This document shows, one piece after another, positions 16,246 to 36,624 of a DNA stretch of 64,000 nt. Numbering within the stretch: position 1 is the stretch's first letter; every line of letters starts with the position of its first letter. The stretch comes from Escherichia coli (GTDB lineage: Bacteria; Pseudomonadota; Gammaproteobacteria; Enterobacterales; Enterobacteriaceae). The notes below the pieces were generated by a model. It was not told the DNA's origin, searched no databases, and saw only the letters and a program-made list of their open reading frames with translations. The stretch is taken from assembly GCF_050320075.1 (NCBI RefSeq), contig NZ_CP190018.1; one strand, given 5' to 3'. Position numbers and translations under genes: made by a program.

Positions 16246-16267
16246 TTACAATAAATAACCTTTAACC

Positions 16268-17077: not shown

Positions 17078-17142
17078 TGATAACCACGTCATTATCGAAG
17101 TGACATTTTTACTCTTATTAATAACCTTAGAGATTATTTACC

Positions 17143-17553
17143 ATGTCGATAAAACAAATGCCAGGGAGGGTATTAATATCGCTATTGTTGAGCGTTACAG
17201 GATTATTAAGTGGCTGTGCCAGTCATAATGAAAATGCCAGTTTACTGGCGAAAAAACAGGCGCAAAATATCAGCCAAAACCTGCCGATTAAATCTGCGGG
17301 ATATACCTTAGTGCTGGCGCAAAGTAGCGGCACGACGGTAAAAATGACCATTATCAGCGAAGCGGGTGCTCAGACCACGCAGACGCCTGATGCCTTTTTA
17401 ACCAGCTATCAACGACAAATGTGCGCTGACCCGACGGTGAAATTAATGATTACCGAGGGAATTAATTACAGCATAACGATTAATGATACACGTACAGGTA
17501 ACCAGTATCAGCGGAAACTGGATCGTACCACCTGTGGAATAGTCAAAGCATAA
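17143..17553 (+). CDS. yghG: Secretin pilotin lipoprotein (YghG / GspS-beta / AspS).
   Basis: 136 aa with the lipobox LLSGC. It lies between pppA and gspC. Confidence 0.8.
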   Translation: MSIKQMPGRVLISLLLSVTGLLSGCASHNENASLLAKKQAQNISQNLPIKSAGYTLVLAQSSGTTVKMTIISEAGAQTTQTPDAFLTSYQRQMCADPTVKLMITEGINYSITINDTRTGNQYQRKLDRTTCGIVKA

Positions 17554-17570
17554 CGTCGGGTAGATATAAA

Positions 17571-18530
17571 TTGGCGCGGGTTGTTTTTCGTGACGCACGA
17601 ATTTATCTCATTCAATGGCTGACAAAAATTCGTCACACTCTTAACCAGAGACAATCTCTTAATACAGACAAAGAGCATCTGCGAAAAATTGTACGCGCGA
17701 TGTTCTGGCTGATGCTGCTTATTATTTCTGCAAAAGTGGCGCATTCACTCTGGCGCTATTTCTCCTTTTCTGCGGAATATACGGCGGTTTCCCCATCGGC
17801 GAATAAACCGCCCCGTGCAGATGCAAAAACGTTCGATAAAAATGACGTGCAATTAATCAGCCAGCAAAACTGGTTTGGCAAATATCAGCCTGTCGCCGTG
17901 CCGGTAAAACAACCTGAACCTGCGCCTGTGGCAGAAACACGTCTTAATGTGGTGCTGCGCGGGATCGCCTTTGGTACCAGACCTGGCGCGGTTATTGAAG
18001 AAGGCGGCAAACAGCAGGTCTATTTGCAGGGGGAACGGCTTGGTTCTCACAACGCGGTGATTGAGGAAATCAACCGCGACCATGTGATGCTGCGCTATCA
18101 GGGAAAAATAGAGCGCCTGAGCCTGGCAGAAGAGGAGCGTTCCACCGTAGCCGTGACCAACAAAAAAGCCATCAGTGACGAAGCAAAGCAAGCTGTTGCT
18201 GAGCCTGCTGCCAGTGCGCCAGTTGAGATCCCGACTGCTGTGCGTCAGGCACTGGCGAAAGATCCGCAGAAAATTTTTAACTATATCCAGCTTACGCCTG
18301 TGCGTAAGGAGGGGATTGTCGGTTATGCAGTGAAGCCGGGGGCAGATCGTTCTCTGTTCGATGCCAGCGGTTTCAAGGAAGGCGATATCGCCATTGCGTT
18401 AAATCAGCAGGATTTCACTGATCCACGAGCAATGATTGCTCTGATGCGGCAGTTACCTTCAATGGATTCCATTCAACTTACGGTTTTACGCAAGGGTGCG
18501 CGCCACGACATTTCCATCGCGCTGCGCTAA
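17571..18530 (+). CDS. gspC: T2SS protein GspC (beta system).
   Basis: One TM segment (MFWLMLLIISAKVAHSLW) and a C-terminal PDZ-like region. The TTG start at 17571 is uncertain; an in-frame ATG at 17700 is an alternative. Confidence 0.75.
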   Translation: MARVVFRDARIYLIQWLTKIRHTLNQRQSLNTDKEHLRKIVRAMFWLMLLIISAKVAHSLWRYFSFSAEYTAVSPSANKPPRADAKTFDKNDVQLISQQNWFGKYQPVAVPVKQPEPAPVAETRLNVVLRGIAFGTRPGAVIEEGGKQQVYLQGERLGSHNAVIEEINRDHVMLRYQGKIERLSLAEEERSTVAVTNKKAISDEAKQAVAEPAASAPVEIPTAVRQALAKDPQKIFNYIQLTPVRKEGIVGYAVKPGADRSLFDASGFKEGDIAIALNQQDFTDPRAMIALMRQLPSMDSIQLTVLRKGARHDISIALR

Positions 18531-18559
18531 CCGCATTTAATCCAGGAGAATCATTCATC

Positions 18560-20620
18560 GTGTTTTGGCGTGATATTACGTTGTCGGTCTGGCGTAAGAA
18601 GACAACTGGCCTCAAAACAAAAAAGCGTTTACTGCCGCTGGTGCTGGCAGCGGCATTATGCAGTTCACCGGTCTGGGCGGAAGAAGCCACTTTCACCGCT
18701 AATTTTAAAGATACCGACCTGAAATCGTTCATCGAAACCGTCGGCGCTAACCTTAATAAAACCATCATTATGGGGCCGGGCGTACAGGGGAAAGTGAGTA
18801 TTCGTACCATGACTCCGCTCAATGAACGCCAGTATTACCAGCTATTCCTTAACCTGCTGGAAGCACAGGGGTATGCCGTCGTACCGATGGAAAACGACGT
18901 GCTGAAGGTGGTGAAATCCAGCGCCGCGAAAGTCGAGCCACTGCCGTTGGTCGGTGAAGGCAGCGACAACTACGCGGGCGATGAAATGGTCACCAAAGTA
19001 GTGCCGGTACGTAATGTGTCGGTCCGCGAACTGGCACCGATTTTGCGCCAGATGATCGACAGCGCAGGCTCAGGCAACGTTGTTAATTACGATCCCTCCA
19101 ACGTAATTATGCTCACCGGACGCGCCTCCGTCGTGGAGCGGTTGACAGAAGTGATCCAGCGCGTGGATCACGCGGGTAATCGCACTGAAGAGGTGATCCC
19201 GCTGGATAACGCCTCGGCTTCGGAAATCGCCCGCGTGCTGGAAAGCCTGACCAAAAACAGCGGCGAGAACCAGCCAGCAACGCTGAAATCTCAAATTGTC
19301 GCCGATGAACGCACCAACAGTGTGATTGTCAGTGGTGACCCCGCCACGCGGGACAAAATGCGCCGTCTGATCCGTCGCCTGGACTCAGAAATGGAGCGCA
19401 GCGGCAACAGCCAGGTTTTCTATCTCAAATACAGCAAAGCCGAAGATCTGGTCGATGTACTGAAGCAGGTCAGCGGCACGCTCACGGCGGCTAAAGAAGA
19501 GGCGGAAGGCACGGTCGGTAGCGGGCGTGAGGTTGTCTCCATCGCCGCCAGCAAACACAGTAATGCCCTGATTGTTACCGCGCCGCAGGACATCATGCAG
19601 TCGCTGCAAAGCGTGATTGAACAACTGGATATTCGCCGTGCTCAGGTGCATGTCGAGGCGTTGATCGTGGAAGTTGCTGAAGGCAGCAATATCAACTTCG
19701 GCGTGCAGTGGGCGTCGAAAGATGCCGGATTAATGCAGTTTGCTAACGGTACGCAGATCCCTATCGGTACGCTGGGCGCAGCGATTTCTCAGGCGAAACC
19801 GCAGAAAGGCTCGACGGTGATCAGTGAAAACGGCGCTACCACCATTAATCCGGATACCAACGGCGATCTCTCCACGCTCGCCCAGCTTCTTTCCGGCTTC
19901 AGTGGTACGGCGGTTGGCGTGGTGAAAGGCGACTGGATGGCACTGGTACAGGCGGTCAAAAACGACTCCAGCTCGAACGTGCTCTCCACGCCGAGCATCA
20001 CCACGCTGGACAACCAGGAAGCCTTCTTCATGGTGGGCCAGGACGTTCCGGTATTAACCGGCTCTACCGTTGGCTCCAATAACAGCAATCCTTTCAATAC
20101 AGTAGAAAGGAAAAAAGTCGGCATCATGCTGAAGGTCACGCCGCAGATTAACGAAGGTAACGCGGTACAGATGGTGATTGAGCAGGAAGTGTCGAAGGTG
20201 GAAGGACAGACCAGCCTCGATGTGGTGTTTGGCGAGCGCAAACTGAAGACTACCGTGCTGGCTAACGATGGTGAGTTGATTGTGCTTGGCGGTCTGATGG
20301 ACGACCAGGCGGGAGAAAGCGTGGCGAAAGTGCCGTTGTTGGGCGATATCCCGTTGATTGGCAACCTGTTTAAGTCCACGGCAGATAAAAAAGAAAAACG
20401 TAACCTGATGGTGTTTATCCGTCCGACCATTCTGCGTGACGGTATGGCGGCAGACGGCGTGTCGCAGCGCAAATATAACTATATGCGCGCCGAGCAGATC
20501 TATCGCGATGAGCAAGGCTTAAGCCTGATGCCGAACACTGCGCAGCCGGTACTACCAGCGCAAGACCAAGCCTTACCGCCGGAAGTTCGCGCGTTCCTTA
20601 ATGCCGGGAGAACGCGTTAA
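18560..20620 (+). CDS. gspD: T2SS secretin GspD.
   Basis: 686 aa with a GTG start and a signal peptide ending VWAEE. It has N0-N3 domains and a secretin core ([14 protein letters not shown]). Confidence 0.95.
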
Positions 20621-22113
20621 TGGTGCCTGTAGCACAGGAAACCTCCGCTAACACCGTGCGTCTGCCCTACAGTTTCAGCCGCCGGTTTAGCCTGGTGGCA
20701 TGGTGCGAAGCGTCGCTGGAGATCCTCCATGTTCATCCGTTGTCGCTCTCTGTTTTGCAGGAGCTGCAACGGGGGCTGAACGCGCCCTTTACGCTGCGGC
20801 AAATCGACGAAGCCGAATTTGAACAGCGGCTGAATGCGGTCTGGCAGCGGGACTCTTCCGAGGCTCGCCAACTGATGGAAGATCTCGGTTCTGCCGAGGA
20901 CTTTTTTACCCTCGCAGAAGAACTGCCGGAAACGGAAGATCTGCTGGAAAGTGACGACGATGCGCCGATCATCAAACTGATCAACGCCATGCTGGCAGAG
21001 GCGATTAAAGAAGGCGCTTCGGATATCCACATTGAGACGTTTGAAAAGAGTCTGGTGATCCGTTTTCGTGTTGACGGCACATTACATGAAATGTTGCGCC
21101 CCGGTCGTAAACTGGCCTCGCTGCTGGTCTCGCGTATCAAGGTGATGGCGCGACTGGATATCGCCGAAAAGCGCGTACCGCAGGATGGCCGTATTGCGCT
21201 GCTGCTGGGCGGTCGGGCGATTGACGTCCGTGTATCAACCATGCCTTCCGCCTGGGGGGAACGGGTGGTGCTGCGACTGCTGGACAAAAACCAGGCTCGC
21301 CTGACGCTGGAGCGTCTGGGTTTAAGTCTCGAACTGACTGCGCAGTTGCGCCAGCTGTTACACAAACCGCACGGCATTTTTCTGGTGACGGGGCCGACCG
21401 GTTCCGGCAAAAGCACCACGCTGTACGCTGGATTGCAGGAGCTGAACAACCACTCGCGTAACATTCTCACGGTTGAAGACCCTATCGAATACATGATTGA
21501 AGGGATCGGTCAGACGCAGGTTAACACCCGCGTCGGCATGACATTCGCCCGTGGCCTGCGCGCAATTTTGCGTCAGGACCCGGATGTGGTGATGGTCGGT
21601 GAAATCCGCGATACCGAAACCGCAGAAATCGCTGTTCAGGCTTCACTGACCGGACACCTGGTACTTTCCACGCTGCATACCAACACAGCGGTGGGGGCGA
21701 TCACGCGTTTGCAGGATATGGGCGTGGAGCCTTTCCTGCTCTCTTCCAGTCTGACGGGCGTGATGGCGCAGCGACTGGTCCGCACGCTGTGCTCCGACTG
21801 CCGTCAGGCCGCGCCTGCCACCGACGAAGAAAAACGTCTTATGGGGATCTCCGATACGCATGCCGTCACGCTGTACCATCCGCAGGGCTGCCCCGCCTGT
21901 AATCACAAAGGTTTTCGCGGACGTACTGCCATCCATGAACTGATTGTGGTGGACGCCACATTGCGTGATTTGATCCACCGTCAGGCCGGGGAACTGGAGC
22001 TGGAACGTTATGTCCGGCAACACTCTGCGGGTATCCGCAGCAACGGCATTGAGAAAGTGCTCGCCGGAGAAACCTCTCTCGATGAAGTTCTGCGGGTAAC
22101 CATGGAGGCGTAA
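20620..22113 (+). CDS. gspE: T2SS ATPase GspE.
   Basis: Walker [14 protein letters not shown] and the tetracysteine motif CxxC...CxxC. Its start overlaps the gspD stop. Confidence 0.95.
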
Positions 22114-23336
22114 TGGCACTGTTTTACTATCAGGCGCTGGAGCGTAATGGTCGCAAAACCAAAGGCATGATTGAGGCGGATTCCGCGCGTCATGCCCGTC
22201 AATTGTTACGCGGTAAAGACCTCATTCCCGTGCACATTGAAGCCCGGATGAATGCATCGGCAGGGGGATTGTTGCAGCGTCGGCGGCACGCACATCGTCG
22301 CGTGGCGGCGGCAGATCTGGCGCTGTTCACGCGCCAACTGGCAACGCTGGTGCAGGCAGCAATGCCGCTGGAAACCTGCTTACAGGCGGTCAGTGAGCAA
22401 AGTGAAAAACTGCATGTGAAAAGTTTGGGAATGGCGCTGCGCAGCCGGATTCAGGAAGGCTATACCCTGTCGGACAGCCTGCGCGAACATCCCCGCGTCT
22501 TTGACTCCCTGTTTTGTTCGATGGTCGCTGCCGGAGAAAAATCCGGACATCTCGACGTGGTGCTCAATCGCCTGGCGGATTACACCGAACAGCGGCAGCG
22601 TCTGAAATCACGCCTGCTGCAGGCCATGCTCTACCCGCTGGTACTGCTGGTGGTGGCAACGGGCGTGGTCACTATTTTGCTGACGGCAGTAGTGCCGAAA
22701 ATTATCGAACAGTTTGATCATCTCGGACACGCGCTGCCCGCCTCCACCCGAATGCTCATCGCCATGAGCGACGCGTTACAGGCCAGCGGCGTGTACTGGC
22801 TGGCGGGTTTGCTGGGGCTTCTGGTGCTGGGGCAACGGCTACTCAAAAATCCTGCGATGCGCCTGCGCTGGGATAAAACCTTGCTGCGTTTGCCCGTGAC
22901 GGGGCGTGTTGCGCGCGGACTGAATACGGCGTGTTTTTCCCGCACATTAAGCATCCTCACCGCCAGCAGTGTTCCGCTGCTGGAAGGCATTCAGACCGCC
23001 GCCGCCGTGTCGGCAAATCGTTATGTCGAGCAACAACTGCTGCTGGCGGCAGATCGCGTCCGCGAAGGAAGCAGCCTGCGCGCCGCGCTGGCGGAGTTGC
23101 GACTGTTCCCGCCGATGATGCTGTACATGATCGCCTCCGGCGAACAGAGCGGCGAGCTGGAAACCATGCTTGAGCAGGCCGCAGTCAACCAGGAACGGGA
23201 ATTTGATACCCAGGTGGGGCTGGCGTTAGGGCTGTTTGAGCCTGCTCTGGTGGTGATGATGGCGGGCGTGGTGCTGTTTATTGTCATCGCTATCCTCGAG
23301 CCGATGCTGCAACTGAACAATATGGTTGGAATGTAA
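22113..23336 (+). CDS. gspF: T2SS inner-membrane platform GspF.
   Basis: 407-aa polytopic protein. Its start overlaps the gspE stop. Confidence 0.95.
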   Translation: MALFYYQALERNGRKTKGMIEADSARHARQLLRGKDLIPVHIEARMNASAGGLLQRRRHAHRRVAAADLALFTRQLATLVQAAMPLETCLQAVSEQSEKLHVKSLGMALRSRIQEGYTLSDSLREHPRVFDSLFCSMVAAGEKSGHLDVVLNRLADYTEQRQRLKSRLLQAMLYPLVLLVVATGVVTILLTAVVPKIIEQFDHLGHALPASTRMLIAMSDALQASGVYWLAGLLGLLVLGQRLLKNPAMRLRWDKTLLRLPVTGRVARGLNTACFSRTLSILTASSVPLLEGIQTAAAVSANRYVEQQLLLAADRVREGSSLRAALAELRLFPPMMLYMIASGEQSGELETMLEQAAVNQEREFDTQVGLALGLFEPALVVMMAGVVLFIVIAILEPMLQLNNMVGM

Positions 23337-23352
23337 TTTACGGAGTTATCAC

Positions 23353-23808
23353 ATGAATTCGTTATCCCGCACACAAAAACCACGGGCAGGTTTTACCCTG
23401 CTGGAAGTGATGGTGGTGATTGTTATTCTTGGCGTCCTGGCAAGTCTGGTGGTGCCTAACCTGTTGGGCAATAAAGAGAAAGCGGATCGGCAAAAAGCCA
23501 TCAGCGATATCGTGGCGCTGGAGAACGCGCTGGATATGTACCGACTGGATAACGGGCGTTATCCGACCACAGAACAGGGGCTGGAGGCGTTGATCCAGCA
23601 ACCAGCCAATATGGCGGACTCCCGCAACTACCGTACTGGTGGATACATTAAACGACTGCCAAAAGATCCGTGGGGCAATGATTATCAGTATCTCAGCCCG
23701 GGTGAAAAAGGGCTGTTTGATGTTTATACCCTGGGGGCAGATGGTCAGGAAAACGGGGAAGGCGCTGGCGCAGATATCGGTAACTGGAATTTGCAGGAGT
23801 TTCAGTAA
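23353..23808 (+). CDS. gspG: Major pseudopilin GspG.
   Basis: Prepilin leader and cleavage motif ...RAGFTLLEVMVVIVILG. Start placed at ATG 23353. Confidence 0.9.
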   Translation: MNSLSRTQKPRAGFTLLEVMVVIVILGVLASLVVPNLLGNKEKADRQKAISDIVALENALDMYRLDNGRYPTTEQGLEALIQQPANMADSRNYRTGGYIKRLPKDPWGNDYQYLSPGEKGLFDVYTLGADGQENGEGAGADIGNWNLQEFQ

Positions 23809-23811
23809 TCA

Positions 23812-24375
23812 GTGCCTGAACGCGGATTCACTCTTCTGGAAATCATGCTGGTGATTTTCCTTATCGGCCTTGCCAGTGCGGGCGTGGTGCAGACTTTTGC
23901 GACCGATTCTGAACCGCCTGCGAAAAAAGCAGCGCAGGATTTTCTGACTCGCTTTGCGCAGTTTAAAGACAGGGCAGTGATCGAAGGGCAGACACTCGGT
24001 GTACTAATCGACCCGCCGGGATACCAGTTTATGCAGCGTCGTCAGGGGCAGTGGTTGCCCGTTTCTGCGACCCGGTTATCGGCACAGGTTACGGTGCCGA
24101 AACAGGTGCAGATGCTGTTACAACCCGGAAGTGATATCTGGCAGAAGGAATATGCGCTGGAGCTGCAGCGTCGTCGCCTGACGCTGCACGATATTGAACT
24201 GGAGCTGCAAAAAGAGGCGAAAAAGAAGACGCCGCAGATCCGTTTTTCGCCTTTTGAACCCGCCACGCCGTTTACGCTGCGCTTCTACTCGGCGGTGCAA
24301 AACGCATGTTGGGCGGTAAAACTGGCACACGATGGCGCGTTATCCCTCAATCAATGTGATGAGAGGATGCGATGA
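23812..24375 (+). CDS. gspH: Minor pseudopilin GspH.
   Basis: GFTLLEIMLVIFLIG prepilin motif, with a GTG start. Confidence 0.85.
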   Translation: MPERGFTLLEIMLVIFLIGLASAGVVQTFATDSEPPAKKAAQDFLTRFAQFKDRAVIEGQTLGVLIDPPGYQFMQRRQGQWLPVSATRLSAQVTVPKQVQMLLQPGSDIWQKEYALELQRRRLTLHDIELELQKEAKKKTPQIRFSPFEPATPFTLRFYSAVQNACWAVKLAHDGALSLNQCDERMR

Positions 24376-24743
24376 AGCGCGGATTTACCTTGCTGGAAGT
24401 GATGCTCGCGCTGGCGATTTTTGCGCTGGCTGCCACGGCGGTGTTACAGATTGCCAGCGGCGCGCTGAGTAATCAGCACGTTCTTGAGGAAAAAACGGTA
24501 GCGGGGTGGGTGGCTGAAAACCAGACCGCGCTGCTCTACCTGATGACCCGCGAGCAGCGGGCGGTCAGGCATCAGGGCGAGAGCGATATGGCAGGAAGCC
24601 GCTGGTACTGGCGAACCACACCGCTGAGTACAGGCAACGCGCTACTCCAGGCGGTGGATATTGAAGTCAGCCGTCACGAAGACTTTTCGTCGGTGATTCA
24701 GTCACGACGCGCCTGGTTTAGCGCCGTGGGAGGCCAACAGTGA
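24372..24743 (+). CDS. gspI: Minor pseudopilin GspI.
   Basis: GFTLLEVMLALAIF motif. Its start overlaps the gspH stop. Confidence 0.85.
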   Translation: MKRGFTLLEVMLALAIFALAATAVLQIASGALSNQHVLEEKTVAGWVAENQTALLYLMTREQRAVRHQGESDMAGSRWYWRTTPLSTGNALLQAVDIEVSRHEDFSSVIQSRRAWFSAVGGQQ

Positions 24744-25345
24744 GAAGGACTCGCGCTGGTTTCACGTTACTGGAAATGCTGGTGGCGATAGCCATTTTTG
24801 CCTCGCTGGCACTGATGGCGCAGCAGGTGACTAACGGCGTCACACGCGTGAATAGTGCCGTCGCCGATCACGATCAAAAACTAAACCTCATGCAGCAAAC
24901 GATGAGTTTTCTGACCCACGATCTGACACAAATGATGCCGCGTCCGGTAAGAGGCGATCAGGGCCAGCGTGAACCAGCGTTACTGGCTGGCGCTGGCGTG
25001 CTGGCGTCTGAGAGTGAAGGGATGCGCTTTGTGCGCGGCGGCGTGGTTAATCCGTTGATGCGTCTGCCGCGCAGTAATCTGCTCACCGTCGGTTACCGCA
25101 TTCATGACGGTTATCTCGAACGGTTAGCCTGGCCGCTGACCGACGCAGCAGGCAGCGTGAAGCCGACAATGCAAAAGTTGATTCCGGCGGATTCGCTTCG
25201 TTTGCAGTTCTATGATGGTATGCGCTGGCAGGAGAGCTGGTCGTCAGTACAGGCGATCCCCGTGGCGGTACGCATAACCCTGCATTCGCCGCAGTGGGGC
25301 GAAATTGAACGCATCTGGTTGTTACGCGGGCCGCAATTATCATGA
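24740..25345 (+). CDS. gspJ: Minor pseudopilin GspJ.
   Basis: GFTLLEMLVAIAIF motif. The GTG start overlaps the gspI stop. Confidence 0.85.
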   Translation: MRRTRAGFTLLEMLVAIAIFASLALMAQQVTNGVTRVNSAVADHDQKLNLMQQTMSFLTHDLTQMMPRPVRGDQGQREPALLAGAGVLASESEGMRFVRGGVVNPLMRLPRSNLLTVGYRIHDGYLERLAWPLTDAAGSVKPTMQKLIPADSLRLQFYDGMRWQESWSSVQAIPVAVRITLHSPQWGEIERIWLLRGPQLS

Positions 25346-26319
25346 TCACCTCACCACCAAAACGCGGAATGGCACTGGTCGTGGTGCTGGTATTGCTGGC
25401 GGTTATGATGCTGGTGACCATCACGCTTTCCGGGCGAATGCAGCAACAACTTGGGCGAACGCGCAGCCAGCAGGAGTACCAGCAGGCGCTGTGGTACAGC
25501 GCCAGTGCAGAAAGCCTGGCGTTGAGCGCACTCAGTCTGAGCCTGAAAAATGAAAAACGTGTGCATCTGGCACAGCCGTGGGCTTCTGGCCCTCGTTTTT
25601 TCCCACTGCCGCAGGGGCAAATCGCCGTCACTCTGCGTGACGCACAGGCCTGCTTTAACCTGAATGCCCTCGCTCAGCCGACGACGGCGTCGCGTCCTAT
25701 TGCGGTACAACAACTGATTGCCCTGATATCACGCCTCAATGTGCCTGCTTATCGGGCCGAACTGATAGCCGAAAGCCTGTGGGAGTTTATTGACGAAGAC
25801 CGCAGCGTGCAGACGCGTCTGGGCCGTGAAGACAGCGAGTATCTCGCCCGTTCGGTGCCGTTTTACGCTGCCAATCAACCGCTGGCTGATATCAGCGAGA
25901 TGCGCGTGGTGCAGGGAATGGACGCCGGACTTTATCAAAAACTGAAACCGCTGGTCTGTGCGCTGCCGATGACCCGCCAGCAAATCAACATCAATACCCT
26001 GGACGTCGCGCAAAGTGTGATTCTTGAGGCGCTGTTTGACCCGTGGTTAAGCCCTGTTCAGGCGCGGGCGTTATTACAACAACGTCCGGCGAAGGGCTGG
26101 GAAGATGTCGATCAGTTTCTTGCGCAGCCGCTACTTGCTGACGTCGATGAGCGTACTAAAAAACAGCTAAAAACCGTCCTGAGCGTGGACAGCAATTACT
26201 TCTGGCTGCGTTCAGATATCACCGTGAATGAGATTGAACTGACGATGAACTCGTTAATTGTCCGCATGGGCCCACAACACTTTTCGGTTCTCTGGCATCA
26301 GACAGGAGAAAGTGAGTGA
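25342..26319 (+). CDS. gspK: Minor pseudopilin GspK.
   Basis: 325 aa with an N-terminal hydrophobic segment. Position and size are typical of GspK. Confidence 0.85.
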   Translation: MITSPPKRGMALVVVLVLLAVMMLVTITLSGRMQQQLGRTRSQQEYQQALWYSASAESLALSALSLSLKNEKRVHLAQPWASGPRFFPLPQGQIAVTLRDAQACFNLNALAQPTTASRPIAVQQLIALISRLNVPAYRAELIAESLWEFIDEDRSVQTRLGREDSEYLARSVPFYAANQPLADISEMRVVQGMDAGLYQKLKPLVCALPMTRQQININTLDVAQSVILEALFDPWLSPVQARALLQQRPAKGWEDVDQFLAQPLLADVDERTKKQLKTVLSVDSNYFWLRSDITVNEIELTMNSLIVRMGPQHFSVLWHQTGESE

Positions 26320-27494
26320 GTTCCATGCTTGAGATTTTTATCCCGCTTTGCGCCTCCGATCCCATCCGTTGGCAGCACCGTACCACCGACGTGGAGCACG
26401 GCATCTGGTCTGACGTTGACAACGAACAGCTCCAGCAATGGCTGCAAACTGATGCGATTCGACTCTACATTCCCGGCGAATGGATCAGCGTCTGGCAGGT
26501 TGAACTGCCTGATATCCCCCGCAAGCAGATACCGACTATTCTGCCCGCCTTGCTGGAAGAAGAGCTGAACCAGGATATCGATGAACTGCATTTCGCCCCG
26601 TTGAAAATCGACCAGCAACTGGCAACCGTAGCAGTGATTCACCAACAGCATATGCGCAACATTGCGCAGTGGTTGCAGGCAAACGGCATCACCCGCGCTA
26701 CCGTCGCGCCGGACTGGATGTCCATTCCTTGTGGGTTTATGGCTGGCGATGCGCAACGGGTTATCTGCCGCATCGATGAATGCCGGGGATGGAGCGCCGG
26801 GCGGGCGCTGGCTCCGGTCATGTTCCGCGCACAGCTCAATGAGCAGGATTTACCGCTTTTACTAACCGTGGTCGGCATTGCACCGGAAGAACTGTCTGCA
26901 TGGGCTGGTGCAGACGCCGAACGCCTGACCGTTACGGCTCTGCCCGCCATTACCACTTATGGCGAACCGGAAGGGAACCTGCTAACAGGGCCGTGGCAGC
27001 CTCGGGTCAGCTACCGAAAACAGTGGGCGCGCTGGCGGGTGATGATTCTGCCGGTATTGCTGATTCTGGTTGCGCTGGCAGTGGAACGGGGCGTGACGTT
27101 ATGGAGCATCAGCGAACAGGTGGCGCAAAGCCGCACCCAGGCGGAAAAAAAGTTCTTAACACTGTTCCCGGAGCAGAAGCGGATTGTGAATTTGCGTTCC
27201 CAGGTGACGATGGCGCTGAAAAAATATCGCCCGCAGGCCGACGATACCCGGCTGCTCGCAGAATTGTCAGCGATCGCCAGTACCCTGAAAACGGCGTCAC
27301 TTTCCGACATCGAAATGCGTGGTTTCACCTTTGATCAAAAACGCCAGACTCTTCACCTCCAGCTGCGGGCCGCGAACTTTGCCAGCTTCGACAAACTGCG
27401 TAGCGCACTGGCAACCGATTATGTTGTGCAACAGGACGCATTACAGAAAGAGGGTGATGCGGTTTCCGGCGGCGTAACGTTGCGGAGGAAATAA
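26316..27494 (+). CDS. gspL: T2SS protein GspL.
   Basis: 392 aa with a single central TM segment (VMILPVLLILVALAV). The start is either GTG 26316 or ATG 26325. Confidence 0.85.
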   Translation: MSSMLEIFIPLCASDPIRWQHRTTDVEHGIWSDVDNEQLQQWLQTDAIRLYIPGEWISVWQVELPDIPRKQIPTILPALLEEELNQDIDELHFAPLKIDQQLATVAVIHQQHMRNIAQWLQANGITRATVAPDWMSIPCGFMAGDAQRVICRIDECRGWSAGRALAPVMFRAQLNEQDLPLLLTVVGIAPEELSAWAGADAERLTVTALPAITTYGEPEGNLLTGPWQPRVSYRKQWARWRVMILPVLLILVALAVERGVTLWSISEQVAQSRTQAEKKFLTLFPEQKRIVNLRSQVTMALKKYRPQADDTRLLAELSAIASTLKTASLSDIEMRGFTFDQKRQTLHLQLRAANFASFDKLRSALATDYVVQQDALQKEGDAVSGGVTLRRK

Positions 27495-27495
27495 C

Positions 27496-28032
27496 ATGTT
27501 ACGCGATAAATTTATTCACTATTTTCAGCAATGGCGTGAACGCCAGTTAAGCCGTGGCGAACACTGGCTGGCACAACACCTGGTGGGGCGTTCGCCGCGT
27601 GAAAAGGGCATGTTACTGGCAGCGGTGGTGTTCCTGTTTAGCGCCGGATATTACGTCCTCATCTGGCAGCCTTTGAGCGAACGGATAGAACAACAGGAGA
27701 CGATGTTGCAGCAGCTGGTGGCGATGAACACCCGACTGAAGAACGCCGCGCCGGATATTATTGCAGCGCGAAAATCTGCCACAACAACGCCTGCGCAGGT
27801 ATCGCGGGTCATCAGTGACAGTGCTTCCGCGCACTCGGTGGTCATCAAGCGGATAGCCGAGCGTGGGGAGAATATTCAAGTCTGGATAGATCCGGTGGTG
27901 TTTAATGACCTGCTGAACTGGTTAAAAGCACTGGATGAAAAATATGCGCTGCGGGTGACACAAATTGATGTCAGTGCTGCTGAGAAGACTGGGATGGTGA
28001 ATGTGCAGCGGCTGGAGTTTGGGCGGGGGTAG
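27496..28032 (+). CDS. gspM: T2SS protein GspM.
   Basis: 178 aa with an N-terminal TM segment. It is the last gene of the gsp operon. Confidence 0.85.
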   Translation: MLRDKFIHYFQQWRERQLSRGEHWLAQHLVGRSPREKGMLLAAVVFLFSAGYYVLIWQPLSERIEQQETMLQQLVAMNTRLKNAAPDIIAARKSATTTPAQVSRVISDSASAHSVVIKRIAERGENIQVWIDPVVFNDLLNWLKALDEKYALRVTQIDVSAAEKTGMVNVQRLEFGRG

Positions 28033-28710: not shown

Positions 28711-28908
28711 TCAATATTCCTCTAGCGTCATATTGTTCAGTGATTTATGCGGGTGTTCACAGTTGTATTCTAGCAACCATTTTCCCTTGATTCCCCACAC
28801 TTCATTCAGTATTCTGGGCAGATGAAAATTGAGTGTTTCTGTACGGGATGTCCGGTTAAAACACTCAATGAAAGCGTACTGCGTCAGCTTACTTGGTTGG
28901 ATAAACAT
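28711..28908 (-). pseudogene. Remnant of an IS3-family transposase (C-terminal end of the OrfB / rve integrase core).
   Basis: The translation ...PSKLTQYAFIECFNRTSRTETLNFHLPRILNEVWGIKGKWLLEYNCEHPHKSLNNMTLEEY matches the PGKPxxNxFIESFNGxxRxECLN...YNxxRPHSSL pattern. No upstream catalytic region or inverted repeats were seen. Confidence 0.65.
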
Positions 28909-28980
28909 GCAGTAAAACTGGAGTTTATCCAGTTACAAAAAAAATAATGCGCATTATTAATAACACGCATTAAATATAGA

Positions 28981-30183: not shown

Positions 30184-33100
30184 TTATCTCAAACAATCAT
30201 TTTTAATAATTAAAATTTCTTTATCCCAATTATGAGAATATTTTATTTTTTGGTTTTTTTCCCCATTAGGTCCTTTAAGTGCATCATTTTTATTGAGGCT
30301 AAAACCGAGCACGTCATCATTTGCTAATTTTCCGTTAATTTCTTTTATCCAAGATAAAACTTGAACTCCTCCGCTTGGCGGTGATGATATTTTTTTACAT
30401 AACGACTGGTAAATATCAAATGGAATACAGGTAGTAGGAATATTTGACTTATAAAAATCGTAGAAAAAGTCAAATGCTGAAGGAGAACGGTCTATATGAT
30501 TAGTACCCGTTATTATAACAGCTTTTAAGCCAGCTAAAGACTTTCTAGAGACTTCTTCAAATGAAGGTGATTTTACCCAAATGTCAGTTTTTACTCCTAT
30601 ATCAGCTCTTCGGTTAAGGCTCGTATCGTAGCTATTAAATCTAATTACGATATTGCACTTATTTATCTCTTTTCCCTTTTTAATCCCTCTTTGGTTTGGT
30701 GAATTACCTATGATTTTAATATTATCTTTGTTTTTCTTTAATAAAGAAACTATGATATCTTTGCTATTTTCCACAAAATTATAACACCGAGCCAGTTCTC
30801 TGATATATTCACCTTCATCGAAGTCTAAAGATGAAATATAATTTTCGTCATTACTAATGATATTGGCCAATCGAAGATATTGTTTCTTTCTGAAAATGGA
30901 AGGTGATTTTGCTATACACTTTTTAGCGAGAATTATAGCATCTTGATAATTTCCACTTTCGGCAAGTATTGATGATAAATCAAATTGTTGATCTATCGTA
31001 AGATTCGCTGTGATGGGTGACTTAGCAAATTTTACCATCTCTTTGTTTATGCCAAAATAAATCCATTTTGTTCTGTAATATAGATAGGAAAGAGTTGGCG
31101 TGTATTTTTCTATTGGTTTTACTCGCTTATAAGCATTATCTAATTCGCTTCCAAATTTTCGCTTTGCTATGAGCGGGCGAATGGTGTCAGAAAAAAGCCA
31201 ATTATTAAAGTTTTTATTTAACCTTAATATTATTTCATTTTTTTTATTTTTTTTCAAGAGCATGTCTTGAGCGAATTTTTTTGGGGATTTAATCAATTTT
31301 AATATTTTTTTATTAGGTATATGGGGTGGAGTTGTTTTTATATAATTCATTGGTGGTTGTTGTTCTTGAGAAGGAAGTTGCTTTTTTCGTTGTGTTGGTG
31401 GATTCATAATAGCTTCAATTAAAGGGTATAGAGATATTTCAAAACCATCCCAATGCCCCTTGTCATATATATCAGATACTGGGAGTTGGCGTATTTTTAA
31501 ATATTCTAAGAAAATATCTCTTCGTTTTTTGGGGATATGTATGTTAGATAACCAGCGTTCTTTTATATTTCCGTCATGGCATTCAACAACTATTCCTTTA
31601 TTTTGAAAAATGCCATAACCTAATGAATATATATTAACTGGGTATTGCATTGCTTCTATTATAACAGTTGAGTTAACGGCGATTAATGCTAACGAATCAC
31701 TTAAACTATTTGATAATTTTTCTTCGTTATCAAAGCTTATATTATCTAATTTTTCAATTGAATAGTTGTTTTTATCCCGAGGATGCTTTCTTATTACAAT
31801 ATGAATATCTTTAGGAAGTGAGGTGCGTATATGATAAATTAGTTCCTGATGACTGAGTTGAAGTGGATATGATTCTTTATCTAAAGTAGTATCTCCGGGT
31901 AGTTGCAGTGCAAGAATCACTTTTTTACTATAAGAAGTTAGAATCGTTTCATTATTGTCAATTGTATAATTATGCGTTAGTTCTTCTAGTGATTTAAATC
32001 GGATACTACTTTTATAGTTTGCGCCCATATAATCAAAATATATATTTCCATTTTGTGGTAACCATCCTAATTCAGAATAAACAGTGGGTATAGAGCGAAG
32101 CGAATAAAGTTCATCTAAAGCATTATTAAAAAATTTAGTGTTGCCATTAAATATAAATAGCATATTCGGATTAGATGCTAGAAAGTCTTCAGAAAGTTTC
32201 CTCAAATTAAATCGCCAATCATAAAATGTATAGTTTTTGGGAGATATTGGGAATTTTCTCGAGAATTTGGTATTGTAATTTAACTCTTTTCTGGAAACGA
32301 AATGATAGTTATTTATTACTGAGCTTAAAAGCCCGCCCCACATCTCTTGTGAGTGTTCATTCATCATAGACAGACCAAATACATCTAGTTTATTATCTAG
32401 ATAATTAGATGCGGCATTTTTGTATGCTAACTTTATTGAGGTATCTGATGCAGTATAAAGATTGTTCTTTATATTCTTGCTTATACATAGGGAATTATTG
32501 CCATTAATTATATTAATTATATTTGAGATATATTTCCTATTGTTTTCAAGTATAAATTCTTCAACGATTTTTCGGTTAGGCGGTAACTGTGATAGCTTGT
32601 CAATTACAGCTGCACTAAAAGTTATTAAATCTTGATAGTGTATTAACGTTAAAAGCTCTGCTGGGTAACATTCTGAAAACCCCCCTACGTCCCAAGCCAC
32701 AACATGACATGAACAACTAATCGCTTCAGCCGCTACTAAACTAAAACTTTCAAATCGACTAGGGATTATACATACTTTTGATTTTTTCAATAGTTCTAAT
32801 TTTGTTTCATTATCAACCCACCCTAAAAATTCAACATTACATTTAGAATTGATAAGATTAACATAATCTTTTTCGGTAATGTTAATGCCAATAATCTTAA
32901 TGTTTATATTATTTGGAAAGTGAGATATTAATTTTGAAAGATAATCGCTTCCTTTTACTAAATCAAGCCGTCCTACAAAAATAACATCAATATCTTTGCA
33001 AGTAACTTCTTGATACATAAAAGGTATAGGGTTGGGAAAAATAGCTACATTGGGTAAAGAAAAACCGTATGCTTGGTAGTTTTTTAGACTTGGTGATGAA

Positions 33101-33453
33101 ATATAATCAGCCTTTATTGCAGAGTCTAACTCTCGCTGATAACGATTCAAGTTAATGGTTACTTTATTTAATTCTTGTAATAACTTAGAAGGGGCATGCA
33201 GTCGTACATGTCGTTTGAATTTTGTATGTGTTTCATTATGATAAAGCCCCCACGCATCTGGAAGTTCGACAATATCATTTTCTGTGGCTATACTGTTTAT
33301 CTTATCTTCTAATTGTTTAGGGGATAATCTTTCGTCATTCCTAATAATCTGTGCATCAATGCCATTTTCTAATAGTAGATGATATGCACTCGCCACATAG
33401 TTCGAAATTCCATTGTTTTTATGTGAAAAAGGACTTACGAAGTAATATGTCAT
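30184..33453 (-). CDS. Large multidomain capsule glycosyltransferase/polymerase candidate. It combines a GT4-like (GT-B) domain, a KpsC/KpsS-like (Capsule_synth, beta-Kdo-transferase-type) domain, a TPR-like linker and a sialyltransferase-like C-terminal domain.
   Basis: 1089 aa. An E-x7-E motif (RFESFSLVAAEA) lies at aa 232-243. VIRKHPRD at aa 553-560 parallels the HP motifs of KpsS (VIKHHPMD) and KpsC ([14 protein letters not shown]) encoded in this window. KIIGNSPNQRGIKKGKEINKCNIVIRFN at aa 913-940 resembles sialyl motif L, PPSGGVQVLSWIKEINGKLANDDVLGFS at aa 1025-1052 resembles motif S, and HNWDKE at aa 1074-1079 fits H-x4-E. Confidence 0.6.
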   Translation of the reverse strand: MTYYFVSPFSHKNNGISNYVASAYHLLLENGIDAQIIRNDERLSPKQLEDKINSIATENDIVELPDAWGLYHNETHTKFKRHVRLHAPSKLLQELNKVTINLNRYQRELDSAIKADYISSPSLKNYQAYGFSLPNVAIFPNPIPFMYQEVTCKDIDVIFVGRLDLVKGSDYLSKLISHFPNNINIKIIGINITEKDYVNLINSKCNVEFLGWVDNETKLELLKKSKVCIIPSRFESFSLVAAEAISCSCHVVAWDVGGFSECYPAELLTLIHYQDLITFSAAVIDKLSQLPPNRKIVEEFILENNRKYISNIINIINGNNSLCISKNIKNNLYTASDTSIKLAYKNAASNYLDNKLDVFGLSMMNEHSQEMWGGLLSSVINNYHFVSRKELNYNTKFSRKFPISPKNYTFYDWRFNLRKLSEDFLASNPNMLFIFNGNTKFFNNALDELYSLRSIPTVYSELGWLPQNGNIYFDYMGANYKSSIRFKSLEELTHNYTIDNNETILTSYSKKVILALQLPGDTTLDKESYPLQLSHQELIYHIRTSLPKDIHIVIRKHPRDKNNYSIEKLDNISFDNEEKLSNSLSDSLALIAVNSTVIIEAMQYPVNIYSLGYGIFQNKGIVVECHDGNIKERWLSNIHIPKKRRDIFLEYLKIRQLPVSDIYDKGHWDGFEISLYPLIEAIMNPPTQRKKQLPSQEQQPPMNYIKTTPPHIPNKKILKLIKSPKKFAQDMLLKKNKKNEIILRLNKNFNNWLFSDTIRPLIAKRKFGSELDNAYKRVKPIEKYTPTLSYLYYRTKWIYFGINKEMVKFAKSPITANLTIDQQFDLSSILAESGNYQDAIILAKKCIAKSPSIFRKKQYLRLANIISNDENYISSLDFDEGEYIRELARCYNFVENSKDIIVSLLKKNKDNIKIIGNSPNQRGIKKGKEINKCNIVIRFNSYDTSLNRRADIGVKTDIWVKSPSFEEVSRKSLAGLKAVIITGTNHIDRSPSAFDFFYDFYKSNIPTTCIPFDIYQSLCKKISSPPSGGVQVLSWIKEINGKLANDDVLGFSLNKNDALKGPNGEKNQKIKYSHNWDKEILIIKNDCLR

Positions 33454-33528: not shown

Positions 33529-34206
33529 TTAAACTATGGTATTAATGCTTTCATCAAAAATGTAATTTTCGATCGCATGCTTTACATCTTTATAAACTGT
33601 TATGTGATTGTCTCTACCGATATAGATTGCAATATCACAATATGATTTTAATAAATTCATACTATGGGAAACCATTAAGAAACTTGATTTTTCATGCTTT
33701 TTATTAAAGAGTGATAAACATTTCTCCTTAAATCTGGCATCTCCTACAGCCATAACTTCATCAACAAGATAATAATCAAAATCAAATGCCATGCTGAGTC
33801 CAAATCCTAACCGAGAACGCATGCCAGAAGAATATGTTTTTATTGGCATGTCAAAGTATTTCCCCAGTTCGGAAAATTCCTCTACAAATGAAACCTTATC
33901 TTGCAGCTCATCTTTTTTAGCATAAAGTCTTGCAACAAATTTAACATTTTCACGCCCTGTCAGACTGCCTTGAAAACCACCAGCTAAACCTACTGGCCAT
34001 GAAATGGTTTGATCAGTAAGTATTCTCCCCTTATCTGGTCGATCTATACCACCTATCATTCGAAGCAATGTTGATTTACCTGCACCATTGCGTCCAACTA
34101 AAGCAACACTTTTTCCTGTGGGTAATTCAATATTTAAATCTTTAAAAACATAATGTCTTCCTTTAGGTGTACGATATGATTTGGTGAGATTCTCAATACG
34201 TATCAT
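33529..34206 (-). CDS. kpsT: Capsule ABC transporter ATPase KpsT.
   Basis: Start placed at MIRIENLTKSY. Walker A is GRNGAGKSTLL. The ATG overlaps the kpsM stop (ATGA). Confidence 0.9.
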   Translation of the reverse strand: MIRIENLTKSYRTPKGRHYVFKDLNIELPTGKSVALVGRNGAGKSTLLRMIGGIDRPDKGRILTDQTISWPVGLAGGFQGSLTGRENVKFVARLYAKKDELQDKVSFVEEFSELGKYFDMPIKTYSSGMRSRLGFGLSMAFDFDYYLVDEVMAVGDARFKEKCLSLFNKKHEKSSFLMVSHSMNLLKSYCDIAIYIGRDNHITVYKDVKHAIENYIFDESINTIV

Positions 34207-34982
34207 GAGGTTAACATAGCCTCCTCTTTGAAACGGTAAAGGCAAAGTCCTACGAAAAACACTACTAAAGAAAAAAATGCAAGATAATTAATACTAACAC
34301 CTTCACTTATATATCCCGGTACAACAGATTGGCGACTTAACTCCACAACATGTACTAAAGGATTCCATAATAAATATCCCCAGTATATTTTAGGGATAGA
34401 ATGGAGAGGAAACATTACGCAAGATATGAAATAAAGAGGTTTAATCATTATGGGCAAAAATTTTTCCGTTTCTGGGAAAGTTTTACCTAACACCATGAAA
34501 ATTAAACCTATACCAAGAGAAAATATAATAAGTAATCCCCAAGTTGCAGCGAGTATAATGATGTTTAAAAATGAAAATTCTTCTCCAAGTAGACCTACAA
34601 TTGACATGAGGATTATGTAAACACCACTATATATTAATGCTTCAAGAAGGGTTCGTGAAATTATGGTGTCAATAGGCTTTATAGGCCTGTAATTAAATAA
34701 GCCCTGATTAGAGTTTATTGCTCCAATAGAGCGGACAGCAATATTACTAAAAAGAAAATAAGGGATAAGTCCGTTTAGAAGAAACACTGGGAACGATATA
34801 TCTGGCATAGTTCTATGCATAATATATCCAAATATACCAATCAAGATTATCAAATGTGCTGTTGGCTCAAGGAGTGCCCATAAATACCCCAGACGATATT
34901 TACCAAAACGAGTCTTAATTTCACGAAGAAATAAAGCTTTTACTGCTGCTATTTGAACTTCAAAACCACTTCTTCTAGCCAT
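34203..34982 (-). CDS. kpsM: Capsule ABC transporter permease KpsM.
   Basis: Start placed at MARRSGFEVQIAAVKALFLREIKTRFG; it is an ABC-2 type permease. The longer ORF-track start (35066) would run through the JUMPstart element. Confidence 0.9.
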   Translation of the reverse strand: MARRSGFEVQIAAVKALFLREIKTRFGKYRLGYLWALLEPTAHLIILIGIFGYIMHRTMPDISFPVFLLNGLIPYFLFSNIAVRSIGAINSNQGLFNYRPIKPIDTIISRTLLEALIYSGVYIILMSIVGLLGEEFSFLNIIILAATWGLLIIFSLGIGLIFMVLGKTFPETEKFLPIMIKPLYFISCVMFPLHSIPKIYWGYLLWNPLVHVVELSRQSVVPGYISEGVSINYLAFFSLVVFFVGLCLYRFKEEAMLTS

Positions 34983-35010: not shown

Positions 35011-35043
35011 ACGCTACCGCCCTTGGCTCTAGCTACCAGCATG
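35011..35043 (-). promoter_or_regulatory. JUMPstart element containing the ops site (RfaH loading site).
   Basis: The minus strand reads CATGCTGGTAGCTAGAGCCAAGGGCGGTAGCGT. The ops core GGCGGTAGCGT is at 35021-35011 and ends 28 nt upstream of the kpsM ATG. Confidence 0.85.
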
Positions 35044-35391: not shown

Positions 35392-36624
35392 TTATTTATT
35401 GTTCAATGCAGAATTGATTTCTAATGTAATAGTGTCGCAGTGTAACTGTGACTCCCCATAATAAACCCCATTAACCTGTGTCTTAACCAATAAATACCCC
35501 CGAAACTTCTTAAACAGTTTCATATCTGGTTTAAAATCAGCCTGCCAGAACTGGTGCAAATGCCCTTGATACGTTAAGCCTTTGATGTCGTACAGGGCAT
35601 TGCCCATCACTTTGAGTGGTTTGTTATGAATCAGCGCAGAGATCCCCGCCGTACTGTTAATTGTTACCACCGCTTTTGCATGGCGTAATAGTTCCGGCAT
35701 CGGGAGATCGTGCACATAAATGACTCGCTCCCCTAAGCCATATTCCTTACTTAGCCGCTTAATTAATGGTCGATAGAGTCTGTGACCACGATCCATCGGA
35801 TGATGTTTGATCACCAAATAACTCTCTTTCGGCGCTTTACGCGAAAATGAGTACATGACTTCATTAATATAGTCACGCACATCGTTATAATTGCTGTGGT
35901 TACGAATTTGGCTATCGTTATATACCTGCAAAACGGCAAGATAATAACGTTGATCCAGGTCATTCATTAACCTCGGCAATACCTTACGCTGTGTTACCTT
36001 GTAAAGTTGCTTGCGCCAGTATGCACGAACCCAGCAACGAGCCTCATACCAGGGGGAAAACGATTTGTGGTGGCGGTAGCGAGGAAACTCACGACGGTAA
36101 TGCCAGCCCATCAGGTAATACCACATTGCATGGCCAATACGTTTCATCGTTGAAGGTTTTAAATTCTCAACGTGCGGCGCAGGCATATCTGGCAACTTAC
36201 GATAAAAATCCGGGTCGCGCGGTAGCGATGAATATGCGTTCACTCCGCCTTCTTCAACGGTTATAAATTGCGGGCGTAAATATCCTTCTTCAAATGCCAG
36301 AAAGCGGATCCCTTTCGACTTTGCCCAGCGTTTTGCTTCTTTGTGCAATGGGCGGCAGTCACCAAAGCAGAGGATGGTATCAAAGTCATATTGCCGATGG
36401 AGATCCCGTAACCATTCGGGGAACTCTTTCGGCGTTTGGTAGTAAGCCAGGTATTGTCGATGGCGGCAGTAAAAACGATCCCCACCGTTGAATACAACGT
36501 TCACAGCGTTACGGCCTAATGACTCTAACCATTCGGCGACGTTATTGAAAAAAGGTCCCATCGGCCCCTGCAATAGCAGATATTTTTTACCGGATAATAA
36601 AACGGTTAGTGCATTACCTTGCAT
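35392..36624 (-). CDS. kpsS: KpsS (beta-Kdo transferase for the capsule lipid-linker).
   Basis: 410 aa with the motif VIKHHPMDRG. It follows kpsC. Confidence 0.9.
   Translation of the reverse strand: MQGNALTVLLSGKKYLLLQGPMGPFFNNVAEWLESLGRNAVNVVFNGGDRFYCRHRQYLAYYQTPKEFPEWLRDLHRQYDFDTILCFGDCRPLHKEAKRWAKSKGIRFLAFEEGYLRPQFITVEEGGVNAYSSLPRDPDFYRKLPDMPAPHVENLKPSTMKRIGHAMWYYLMGWHYRREFPRYRHHKSFSPWYEARCWVRAYWRKQLYKVTQRKVLPRLMNDLDQRYYLAVLQVYNDSQIRNHSNYNDVRDYINEVMYSFSRKAPKESYLVIKHHPMDRGHRLYRPLIKRLSKEYGLGERVIYVHDLPMPELLRHAKAVVTINSTAGISALIHNKPLKVMGNALYDIKGLTYQGHLHQFWQADFKPDMKLFKKFRGYLLVKTQVNGVYYGESQLHCDTITLEINSALNNK

Follow-up and report, generated by a model that had tools for sequence, protein, structure and literature searches.

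A candidate polymerase of the Escherichia coli K111 capsule that joins GT4, β-Kdo-transferase-like and GT29-like modules

The window analyzed here, a stretch of 64,000 nucleotides from the Escherichia coli contig NZ_CP190018.1 (assembly GCF_050320075.1; coordinates without another designation are window positions), contains a group 2 capsule locus with an open reading frame (ORF) of 1089 codons, the product of which has five parts: a GT4 glycosyltransferase (GT) domain, a domain with the fold of transferases for β-linked Kdo (3-deoxy-D-manno-octulosonate), a linker, a set of TPR-like helices and a GT29-like domain. On balance we think that this protein is the sole polymerase of the group 2A capsule K111, with three active GT modules that build a Kdo-rich heteropolymer and a partner, encoded by the adjacent 388-amino-acid (aa) gene, that O-acetylates it. 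A narrower proposal, for which we would claim somewhat less than even chances, is that the GT29-like domain is an inverting α-Kdo transferase fused to a retaining β-Kdo transferase, in which case a single polypeptide would use one donor, cytidine monophosphate (CMP)-β-Kdo, to lay down Kdo in both anomeric forms.

The locus itself is already known from a catalog. The 388-aa protein has the same MD5 as K111_10 in the kTYPr catalog (Miravet-Verde et al., Nat Microbiol 2026, PMC13171606), and the 1089-aa protein has the length and domain positions of K111_9, which the supplement of that catalog lists with 1089 aa, GT1 at 153–261 and GT29 at 914–965 (PMC13171606); because its MD5 differs from that of K111_9, we regard it as an allele. 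The catalog places K111 in group 2A, with GCF_003146455 as its reference, and annotates it in silico only, giving neither glycan structure nor enzymology and not mentioning it in the main text (PMC13171606). Its Fig. 2 identity tables contain no K111 entries, and no cataloged neighbor with similar specific genes was identified. The comparison with a K-locus reference set that had been proposed in a first-pass annotation of the window, made from the sequence alone, thus supplied a name but no assigned enzymology. Because K111 has none, its cataloging leaves standing the first-pass reading, which was staked on the locus not being an already characterized K cluster with assigned enzymology.

The ORF is genuine, as first proposed. 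It is intact on the minus strand from an ATG start, and because stop codons are expected to make up ~8% of random codons at ~30% G+C (an estimate from base composition), an open frame of 1089 codons lies far beyond chance. RefSeq, which names the product 'glycosyltransferase family 29 protein', gives it a length of 1070 aa, with its start placed at codon 20 (GTG), and thereby omits the N-terminal stretch encoded at 33397–33453 (minus strand). We assessed conservation in a set of 14 full-length orthologs (41–57% identity, found in Leclercia and Pseudomonas), in all 14 of which the key residues of every polymerase motif quoted below are invariant. Because residues 3–19 are also invariant in this set, translation is likely to begin at the ATG at 33453, which would make the RefSeq model too short. 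A polymerase at least 99% identical was present in 22 of 5426 complete E. coli genomes, the carriers of K111 including isolates from human, dog and chicken as well as a pleural-effusion strain named ST648. The serotype-specific part of the locus consists, as the first-pass annotation had described it, of two AT-rich genes, this one and the 388-aa gene, which lie in a stretch of 29–31% G+C (0.29–0.31) flanked by DNA of 50–58%; Pfam found no sugar-nucleotide synthesis domain in either.

The N-terminal module had been read as a GT-B/GT4-like domain, and profile searches agreed: Pfam matched it to Glycos_transf_1 (PF00534; E = 1.5e-17, 64.1 bits against a cut-off of 26.4) and to Glyco_trans_1_4 (PF13692; E = 2.3e-16, 60.8 bits), and its matches among PDB sequences were GT4 enzymes such as PimA. 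In the kTYPr table, dbCAN places GT4 at 157–263 of K111_9 (PMC13171606). The peptide FESFSLVAAEA, which contains the E-x7-E signature, is present, although at 234–244 rather than at the 233–243 first given for it, and both E235 and E243 are invariant among the orthologs. We also looked to NCBIfam for a donor sugar, but its matches (TuaC, PglJ, BshA and MshA, at 28–37 bits) were too weak and mixed to assign one.

The middle module is more difficult to place. Its match to Pfam Capsule_synth scored 20.0 bits, exactly at the cut-off (10 of the 14 orthologs match, with a best E value of 2e-8), and dbCAN in the kTYPr table reports no GT99 or GT107 family for the middle domain of K111_9 (PMC13171606). 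Profile alignment with hhalign linked it to the KpsS encoded in the window (E = 1.8e-5, 78% probability) but not significantly to the KpsC encoded there, and its profile found no meaningful match among PDB sequences. Because the KpsC and PDB comparisons were uninformative, we sought the fold of this module by structure prediction. Its AlphaFold model had a predicted local distance difference test score (pLDDT) of 87 and a predicted template modeling (TM) score of 0.87, with low pLDDT at its end, next to the linker. In a Foldseek search with the model, ranks 1–11 were all WbbB/GT99 (E = 9e-11 to 3e-9, TM score 0.46–0.52), and KpsC/GT107 came next (E = 7e-6 to 3e-5, TM score 0.45–0.48). As predicted, then, module 2 has the modified GT-B fold common to WbbB and KpsC.

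Retaining β-Kdo transferases are marked by a QXXXD motif that provides the Kdo-binding Gln and the Asp nucleophile, by an HP motif that binds CMP, and by a Glu base (PMC9587256, PMC12887879). In module 2, Q517-LPG-D521 is invariant; its counterpart in an alignment with the window's KpsC is QIEDD, and QVYND of KpsS shows the same pattern. H557-P558, within the peptide VIRKHPRD (553–560) that the first-pass annotation had singled out, is likewise invariant and aligns with H275-P276 of KpsS, and the invariant E461 (SELGW) lines up, by motif pattern, with the EDGF/EEGY motif of KpsC and KpsS. Moreover, one order of motifs (E-x-G-aromatic, QxxxD, HP, (V/I)NST) is common to module 2 and to the KpsS encoded 2 kb away, in which the counterpart residues are E113, Q233xxxD237 and H275-P276. 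The resemblance to KpsC and KpsS that had been noticed by eye therefore holds in both the ordered motifs and the Foldseek ranking.

At E ≤ 1e-3, an exhaustive search with a hidden Markov model (HMM) of module 2 retrieved 1268 representative clusters. Among the ~30 nearest relatives, most were didomain proteins of 730–870 aa that combine GT4 with module 2, the commonest kind of relative (among P0051–P0073); the relatives also include variants with TPR-GT29, with a HAD domain (P0057, 1602 aa) and with a KpsC-like domain at the N terminus (P0064, 1121 aa). Judged by their domain content, the GT4 + module-2 proteins and their variants together form a modular family of putative hexose (Hex)-Kdo polymerases. 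Because the didomain proteins are the nearest relatives, the didomain looks like a self-sufficient two-sugar polymerase core, and TPR-GT29 looks like a third activity added in the K111 clade.

Between module 2 and the C-terminal parts, the 96 residues from aa 690 to 785 include 19 Lys and 9 Pro, and this linker is gapped and variable in the ortholog alignment. It is followed by a confidently predicted helical repeat that matches TPR proteins, as the first-pass annotation had supposed. Module 3, for which that annotation had listed motifs of GT29-type sialyltransferases, matched Pfam Glyco_transf_29 (PF00777) at 26.8 bits against a gathering cut-off of 23; the same family matched all 14 orthologs (best E value 1e-8) and, in the relative P0050, covered model positions 53–268 of 272. 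A search of 5.8 billion proteins with a module-3 profile retrieved only standalone proteins annotated as GT29, with K6_8 and K126_10 not among them, and a broader profile matched all four groups of solved GT29 structures over sialylmotif L (ST8SiaIII at E = 2e-9, together with ST6Gal1, ST3Gal-I and ST6GalNAc2, over a range of 2e-9 to 2e-5). The predicted model of the module (pLDDT 86) had GT29 enzymes as its top eight Foldseek matches and has the GT-A-variant sialyltransferase fold. GT42 (Cst-I/Cst-II), also considered as the closest family, was rejected, as it was the closest match by neither fold nor profile. With module 2 matching a KpsC/KpsS-related fold and module 3 a GT29-like one, the profile and structure searches that had been suggested as a check confirmed the earlier domain parse, and the interpretation is supported for folds, motifs and context.

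All of the peptides listed for module 3 could be located: IIGNSPN at 914–920, INKCNIVIRFN at 930–940, PPSGG at 1025–1029, DDVLGFS at 1046–1052 and HNWDKE at 1074–1079. Sialylmotif L is present, its GN.P and RFN elements being invariant and aligned to the four solved GT29 groups, and GN.P, RFN, S-x-G, GF and H1074-NWDK-E1079 are not only invariant in the orthologs but also common to standalone bacterial GT29 proteins. Of these, S-x-G with GF has the pattern of sialylmotif S (S/T-x-G...GF), and H1074-NWDK-E1079 that of sialylmotif VS (H-x4-E). Because alignments to the solved enzymes stop past sialylmotif L, we infer the equivalence of H1074 to their catalytic His. Sialylmotif III (H/Y-Y-Y/F/W) was not found: the K111 clade is gapped where standalone bacterial GT29 proteins have HYY or HYF.

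What donor the two CMP-dependent modules might use is suggested by the genes around them. The only CMP-sugar genes in the K111 cluster of the window are kpsU and kpsF; Pfam and RefSeq annotation revealed no neu or other CMP-sugar genes besides these, in agreement with the first-pass annotation, and no sialic-acid genes in or near the locus within the window. The orthologous loci of three other genomes (one of Leclercia and two of Pseudomonas type) carry KpsF, KdsA and KdsB, with KdsB fused to a KdsC-like phosphatase in Pseudomonas, and this combination amounts to a dedicated CMP-Kdo pathway. These three loci also carry KpsC, KpsS, KpsM, KpsT and KpsD, and contain no nonulosonic-acid (neu/leg/pse) or uridine diphosphate (UDP)-sugar genes. 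This synteny strengthens the earlier suggestion that CMP-Kdo is the donor, and the strongest indirect support for its use by both CMP-dependent modules comes from the Kdo pathway at the orthologous loci. As further features of the Pseudomonas-type loci, the KdsB-KdsC fusion is 428 aa long (L004 14214–15500), and an APH-like kinase gene lies between kpsF and kpsC in loci that include L004 (18133–19173) and L006.

The 388-aa partner protein is a probable capsule O-acetyltransferase, as judged from its sequence. Its G84-S-S86-M-G-G nucleophile elbow, D155/D158 and H182 are invariant in five homologs, its C terminus is a TPR domain by Pfam, and InterPro in the kTYPr table places an alpha/beta-hydrolase at 53–199 (PMC13171606). 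The GSSMGG elbow with Asp and His parallels GGS179MGG and the Ser-Asp-His triad of K15 ORF5 and of CsaC and CssE of N. meningitidis, from which the partner differs in its C-terminal TPR domain and in having only weak Pfam hydrolase matches. The gene adjoins the polymerase gene in the Leclercia locus and the two Pseudomonas-type loci as well, and thus in each of the four genera covered. In the Leclercia genome CP031101 it is split by an insertion sequence (IS) transposase (L003 13289–15689), whereas it is intact in another Leclercia-type contig (L002 13289–14464); the split gene is a natural knock-out that could reveal the partner's effect on the capsule. The Pseudomonas-type loci have two paralogous alpha/beta-hydrolase-TPR genes (L004 8803–9984 and 15614–16810), the second of which is found only in L004 and L005.

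The closest known arrangement is that of the K6 and K126 capsules. K6_8, like K126_9 together with K126_10, has the same order of a β-Kdo-transferase module, TPR and GT29, and K126 has in addition a GT4 as a protein of its own, which dbCAN assigns to the subfamily of K111_9 (GT4_e1638). In K111 the GT4 forms part of the one fused polypeptide, the galE of K6 and K126 is absent, and the Kdo module reaches only the Pfam threshold (20.0 bits), whereas that of K6 and K126 is a close KpsC_2/GT107 homolog (CDD E = 1e-125 to 1e-130). Because K126 has a GT4 of the same subfamily beside GT107-TPR-GT29, K111_9 reads as a fused, more divergent version. The strain with the K6 GT29-GT107 protein gives a Kdo homopolymer in mass spectrometry with matrix-assisted laser desorption/ionization, and both families have been argued to transfer ulosonic acids (PMC13171606). 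K15 was rejected as the identity of the locus: its region 2 has seven ORFs, its kpsC is truncated, and its GT4, Maf/CstII-like and hydrolase functions reside in separate genes.

Module 2 shares the modified GT-B fold, QXXXD and HP with WbbB (GT99), KpsC and KpsS (GT107) and KrkA (GT140), and its conserved Glu may correspond to theirs; its identity is only 13–17% to WbbB and 10–15% to KpsC. KrkA, characterized in January 2026 as the first Kdo transferase of a capsule variable region (PMC12887879), adds Kdo within a multi-domain polymerase that makes a capsule's variable part, a role that module 2 would share, but it is paired with a ribofuranosyltransferase-phosphatase, whereas module 2 is paired with GT4 and GT29. 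As KrkA did for GT140, the divergent module 2 might found a new CAZy family. Module 3 differs from the GT29 sialyltransferases ST3Gal-I, ST6Gal1, ST6GalNAc2 and ST8SiaIII in its size (~180 versus ~270 aa), in its missing sialylmotif III, in its fusion to two other glycosyltransferases within cytoplasmic capsule machinery, and in its presumed donor, which would be CMP-Kdo rather than CMP-sialic acid; bacterial GT29-like proteins and the plant proteins RCKT1/MGP2 are further GT29 systems with which it can be compared.

From these folds, motifs and gene contexts we infer how the locus might work. An RfaH/ops-dependent promoter would drive kpsMT, the polymerase gene and the downstream acetyltransferase gene, and the three modules would act on the β-Kdo-lipid primer made by KpsS and KpsC. 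The retaining GT4 module would add an α-linked hexose or N-acetylhexosamine (HexNAc) from a housekeeping UDP-sugar. The GT99/GT107-type module would add β-Kdo from CMP-β-Kdo by double displacement, with Asp521 as nucleophile, His557 of the HP motif protonating the CMP leaving group and Glu461 as the likely general base, and the inverting GT29-type module would add a second, α-linked Kdo from the same donor, with His1074 (H-x4-E) as its likely catalytic base. The expected product is a heteropolymer rich in Kdo, at its simplest either with Hex(NAc)-Kdo-Kdo as the repeat or with a Hex(NAc)-Kdo backbone that bears Kdo as a branch; the 388-aa Ser-Asp-His protein would O-acetylate this polymer, and KpsMT-KpsED would export it.

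Several points weigh against this reading. The literature contains no glycan structure or enzyme assay for K111, nor does it offer a biochemical demonstration of Kdo transfer by a GT29 enzyme of whatever organism; in plants, genetic data show that Kdo on rhamnogalacturonan II requires the GT29 protein RCKT1, with no bioassay. Module 2 is very divergent, as is evident from its empty PDB-sequence search, its nonsignificant alignment to KpsC and the silence of dbCAN on GT99 and GT107, and the donor sugar of the GT4 module is not predictable from sequence, its top NCBIfam matches being weak and mixed. The correspondence of H1074 and E461 to catalytic residues of known enzymes is judged from the pattern of the motifs and from the fold as a whole. 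In addition, the GT29 domain of the K111 clade is small (~180 aa) and has no recognizable sialylmotif III, so that it could be impaired or have another role. One form of this doubt, which we consider improbable, is that one Kdo-transferase-like module lacks catalytic activity and works instead as a scaffold or in carbohydrate binding, leaving a capsule that is a Hex(NAc)-Kdo disaccharide polymer. Such a loss would fit the truncation of the GT29 domain relative to eukaryotic enzymes, with its missing sialylmotif III, the high divergence of module 2, and the frequency of TPR and non-catalytic domains in capsule polymerases. However, E461, Q517, D521, H557 and P558 of module 2 and N917, R938, N940, S1027, H1074 and E1079 of module 3 are invariant at 41–57% identity, which points to selection on active sites, and H-x4-E and GN.P...RFN are common to standalone GT29 proteins.

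Alternatively, only two modules might polymerize, GT4 and one Kdo transferase making a disaccharide repeat, while the other Kdo module acts once per chain, either as a primer on the KpsC/KpsS β-Kdo linker or as a cap. We rate this arrangement as unlikely. In its favor, WbbB, the closest structural match of module 2, has a GT99 domain that is a chain-terminating β-Kdo transferase capping the O-antigen (PMC9587256). GT4 + module-2 didomain proteins, moreover, occur alone and look like complete polymerases. To our knowledge, an enzyme is needed that takes synthesis from the Kdo linker over to the serotype-specific polymer, and it is unassigned for most K types, which speaks for a once-per-chain enzyme, but we know of no need for a chain terminator in group 2 capsules, which speaks against one. 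Furthermore, if the didomain is ancestral, GT29 would be the once-per-chain enzyme, yet the K6 protein with GT29 and GT107 appears to make a Kdo homopolymer. We think it very unlikely that the GT29-like module transfers another CMP-sugar (of the sialic, legionaminic or pseudaminic type) made by genes elsewhere in the genome. All biochemically characterized GT29 enzymes are sialyltransferases, and the RefSeq label of the protein names that family, but genes for nonulosonic-acid synthesis or activation are absent from this locus and from the three orthologous loci, all of which have Kdo-pathway genes. As far as we know, E. coli has no nonulosonic-acid pathways unless the K or O locus provides them.

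Because the locus is cataloged and the hypothesis of Kdo transfer by GT29 was already put forward for K6 in 2026, the novelty of K111_9 as a discovery is low. What remains of interest is a bacterial GT29 domain that may make α-Kdo linkages alongside a retaining β-Kdo transferase. The paper on K15 reports that the enzymes making the α-Kdo linkages of the K6, K15 and K16 capsules are unidentified, and the kTYPr paper states that an inverting Kdo transferase would be required for K16 and K74 (PMC13171606). If the proposed role of module 3 is true, it would be the first GT29 with demonstrated Kdo transfer and the first enzyme identified for capsule α-Kdo linkages. The protein offers a tractable test case, in which a retaining and a putative inverting Kdo transferase stand side by side, with soluble bacterial orthologs from Leclercia and Pseudomonas and with clear targets for point mutation in D521, H557 and H1074. 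Knowledge of the K111 glycan also matters for capsule typing, phage and vaccine work.

Table 1. Positions in the window of the candidate polymerase, its parts, and neighboring features of the capsule locus.
Feature	Position	Strand	Remarks
Polymerase candidate, multi-domain, K111_9 allele	30184..33453	-	1089 aa, stop codon included; from ORF list and translation
Module 1, putative GT4 (GT-B, retaining) hexosyl/HexNAc transferase, aa 1-330	32464..33453	-	E235-x7-E243
Module 2, retaining β-Kdo-transferase-like (GT99/GT107 superfamily), aa 355-690	31384..32391	-	E461, Q517-x3-D521, H557-P558, V593-NST
Linker, aa 691-784	31102..31383	-	Lys/Pro-rich, weakly conserved
TPR-like helical domain, aa 785-907	30733..31101	-	
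Module 3, compact GT29 sialyltransferase-like, aa 908-1089	30187..30732	-	GNSP 916-919, RFN 938-940, PPSGG 1025-1029, GFS 1050-1052, H1074-x4-E1079
Partner gene, alpha/beta-hydrolase + TPR, 388 aa	29013..30179	-	identical to K111_10
Terminator-like hairpin	28945..28972	-	12-bp stem then T8, directly after the 388-aa gene
kpsT	33529-34206	-	ATP-binding cassette (ABC) exporter gene; Pfam ABC_tran, RefSeq
kpsM	34203-34982	-	ABC exporter gene; Pfam ABC2_membrane, NCBIfam KpsM 175 bits, RefSeq
ops element, exact GGCGGTAG	35014..35021	-	putative RfaH/JUMPstart-type site; lies upstream of kpsM, 32 nt from its start
kpsS	35392-36624	-	
kpsF	42353-43372	-	

Membership of the locus in group 2 follows from the presence of kpsFEDUCS and kpsMT, as judged from Pfam and NCBIfam matches together with RefSeq annotation. 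On the minus strand the genes run in the order kpsFEDUCS, kpsMT, the 1089-aa gene and the 388-aa gene, that is, region 1, region 3 and region 2, with kpsMT directly upstream of the polymerase gene and transcribed in the same direction. The first-pass annotation was right about the two specific genes of region 2, but these come after kpsMT and not in the interval that separates region 1 from region 3. The canonical group 2 layout, in which region 2 lies between the other two and is convergent with region 1, was not found, all genes being on one strand. Some 2A clusters in the kTYPr catalog are without a flanking kpsM (PMC13171606). KpsM and KpsT are both AT-rich and divergent, KpsM scoring 175 bits against an NCBIfam cut-off of 300, and their identities to the proteins of the Leclercia locus are 38% and 50%, respectively, compared to 55% for the polymerase. 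This similar divergence fits an import of kpsMT along with the two specific genes.

An exact ops element precedes kpsM, and the role of such elements is established for the region 3 promoters of group 2 loci. The strong terminator-like hairpin after the partner gene probably ends the transcript that covers kpsMT, the polymerase gene and the acetyltransferase gene. With ops upstream of kpsM and this hairpin at the other end, the four AT-rich genes (kpsM, kpsT, the polymerase gene and the 388-aa gene) look like one RfaH-dependent transcription unit. A promoter scan found fewer sites than in shuffled sequence and was hence uninformative.

A scan of the 64-kb window detected no tRNA, placing the pheV anchor outside the window. 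The AT-rich DNA that separates the capsule locus from gspM/yghD contains a 65-aa integrase-core (rve_3) remnant (28711–28908, minus strand), which looks like the scar of the insertion or rearrangement that put the capsule block here. On the plus strand, 11542–28032 encodes an SslE/YghJ-like M60 metallopeptidase (1528 aa, DUF4092 + Peptidase_M60) and a prepilin peptidase, as well as a complete gspC-M operon for type II secretion. Beyond kpsF, the opposite flank carries a gene for a ParA/AAA_31-type ATPase (44671–45549, plus strand) and fragments annotated by RefSeq as IS110 and DUF4942, and these pieces are left over from the genomic island on which the kps locus resides.

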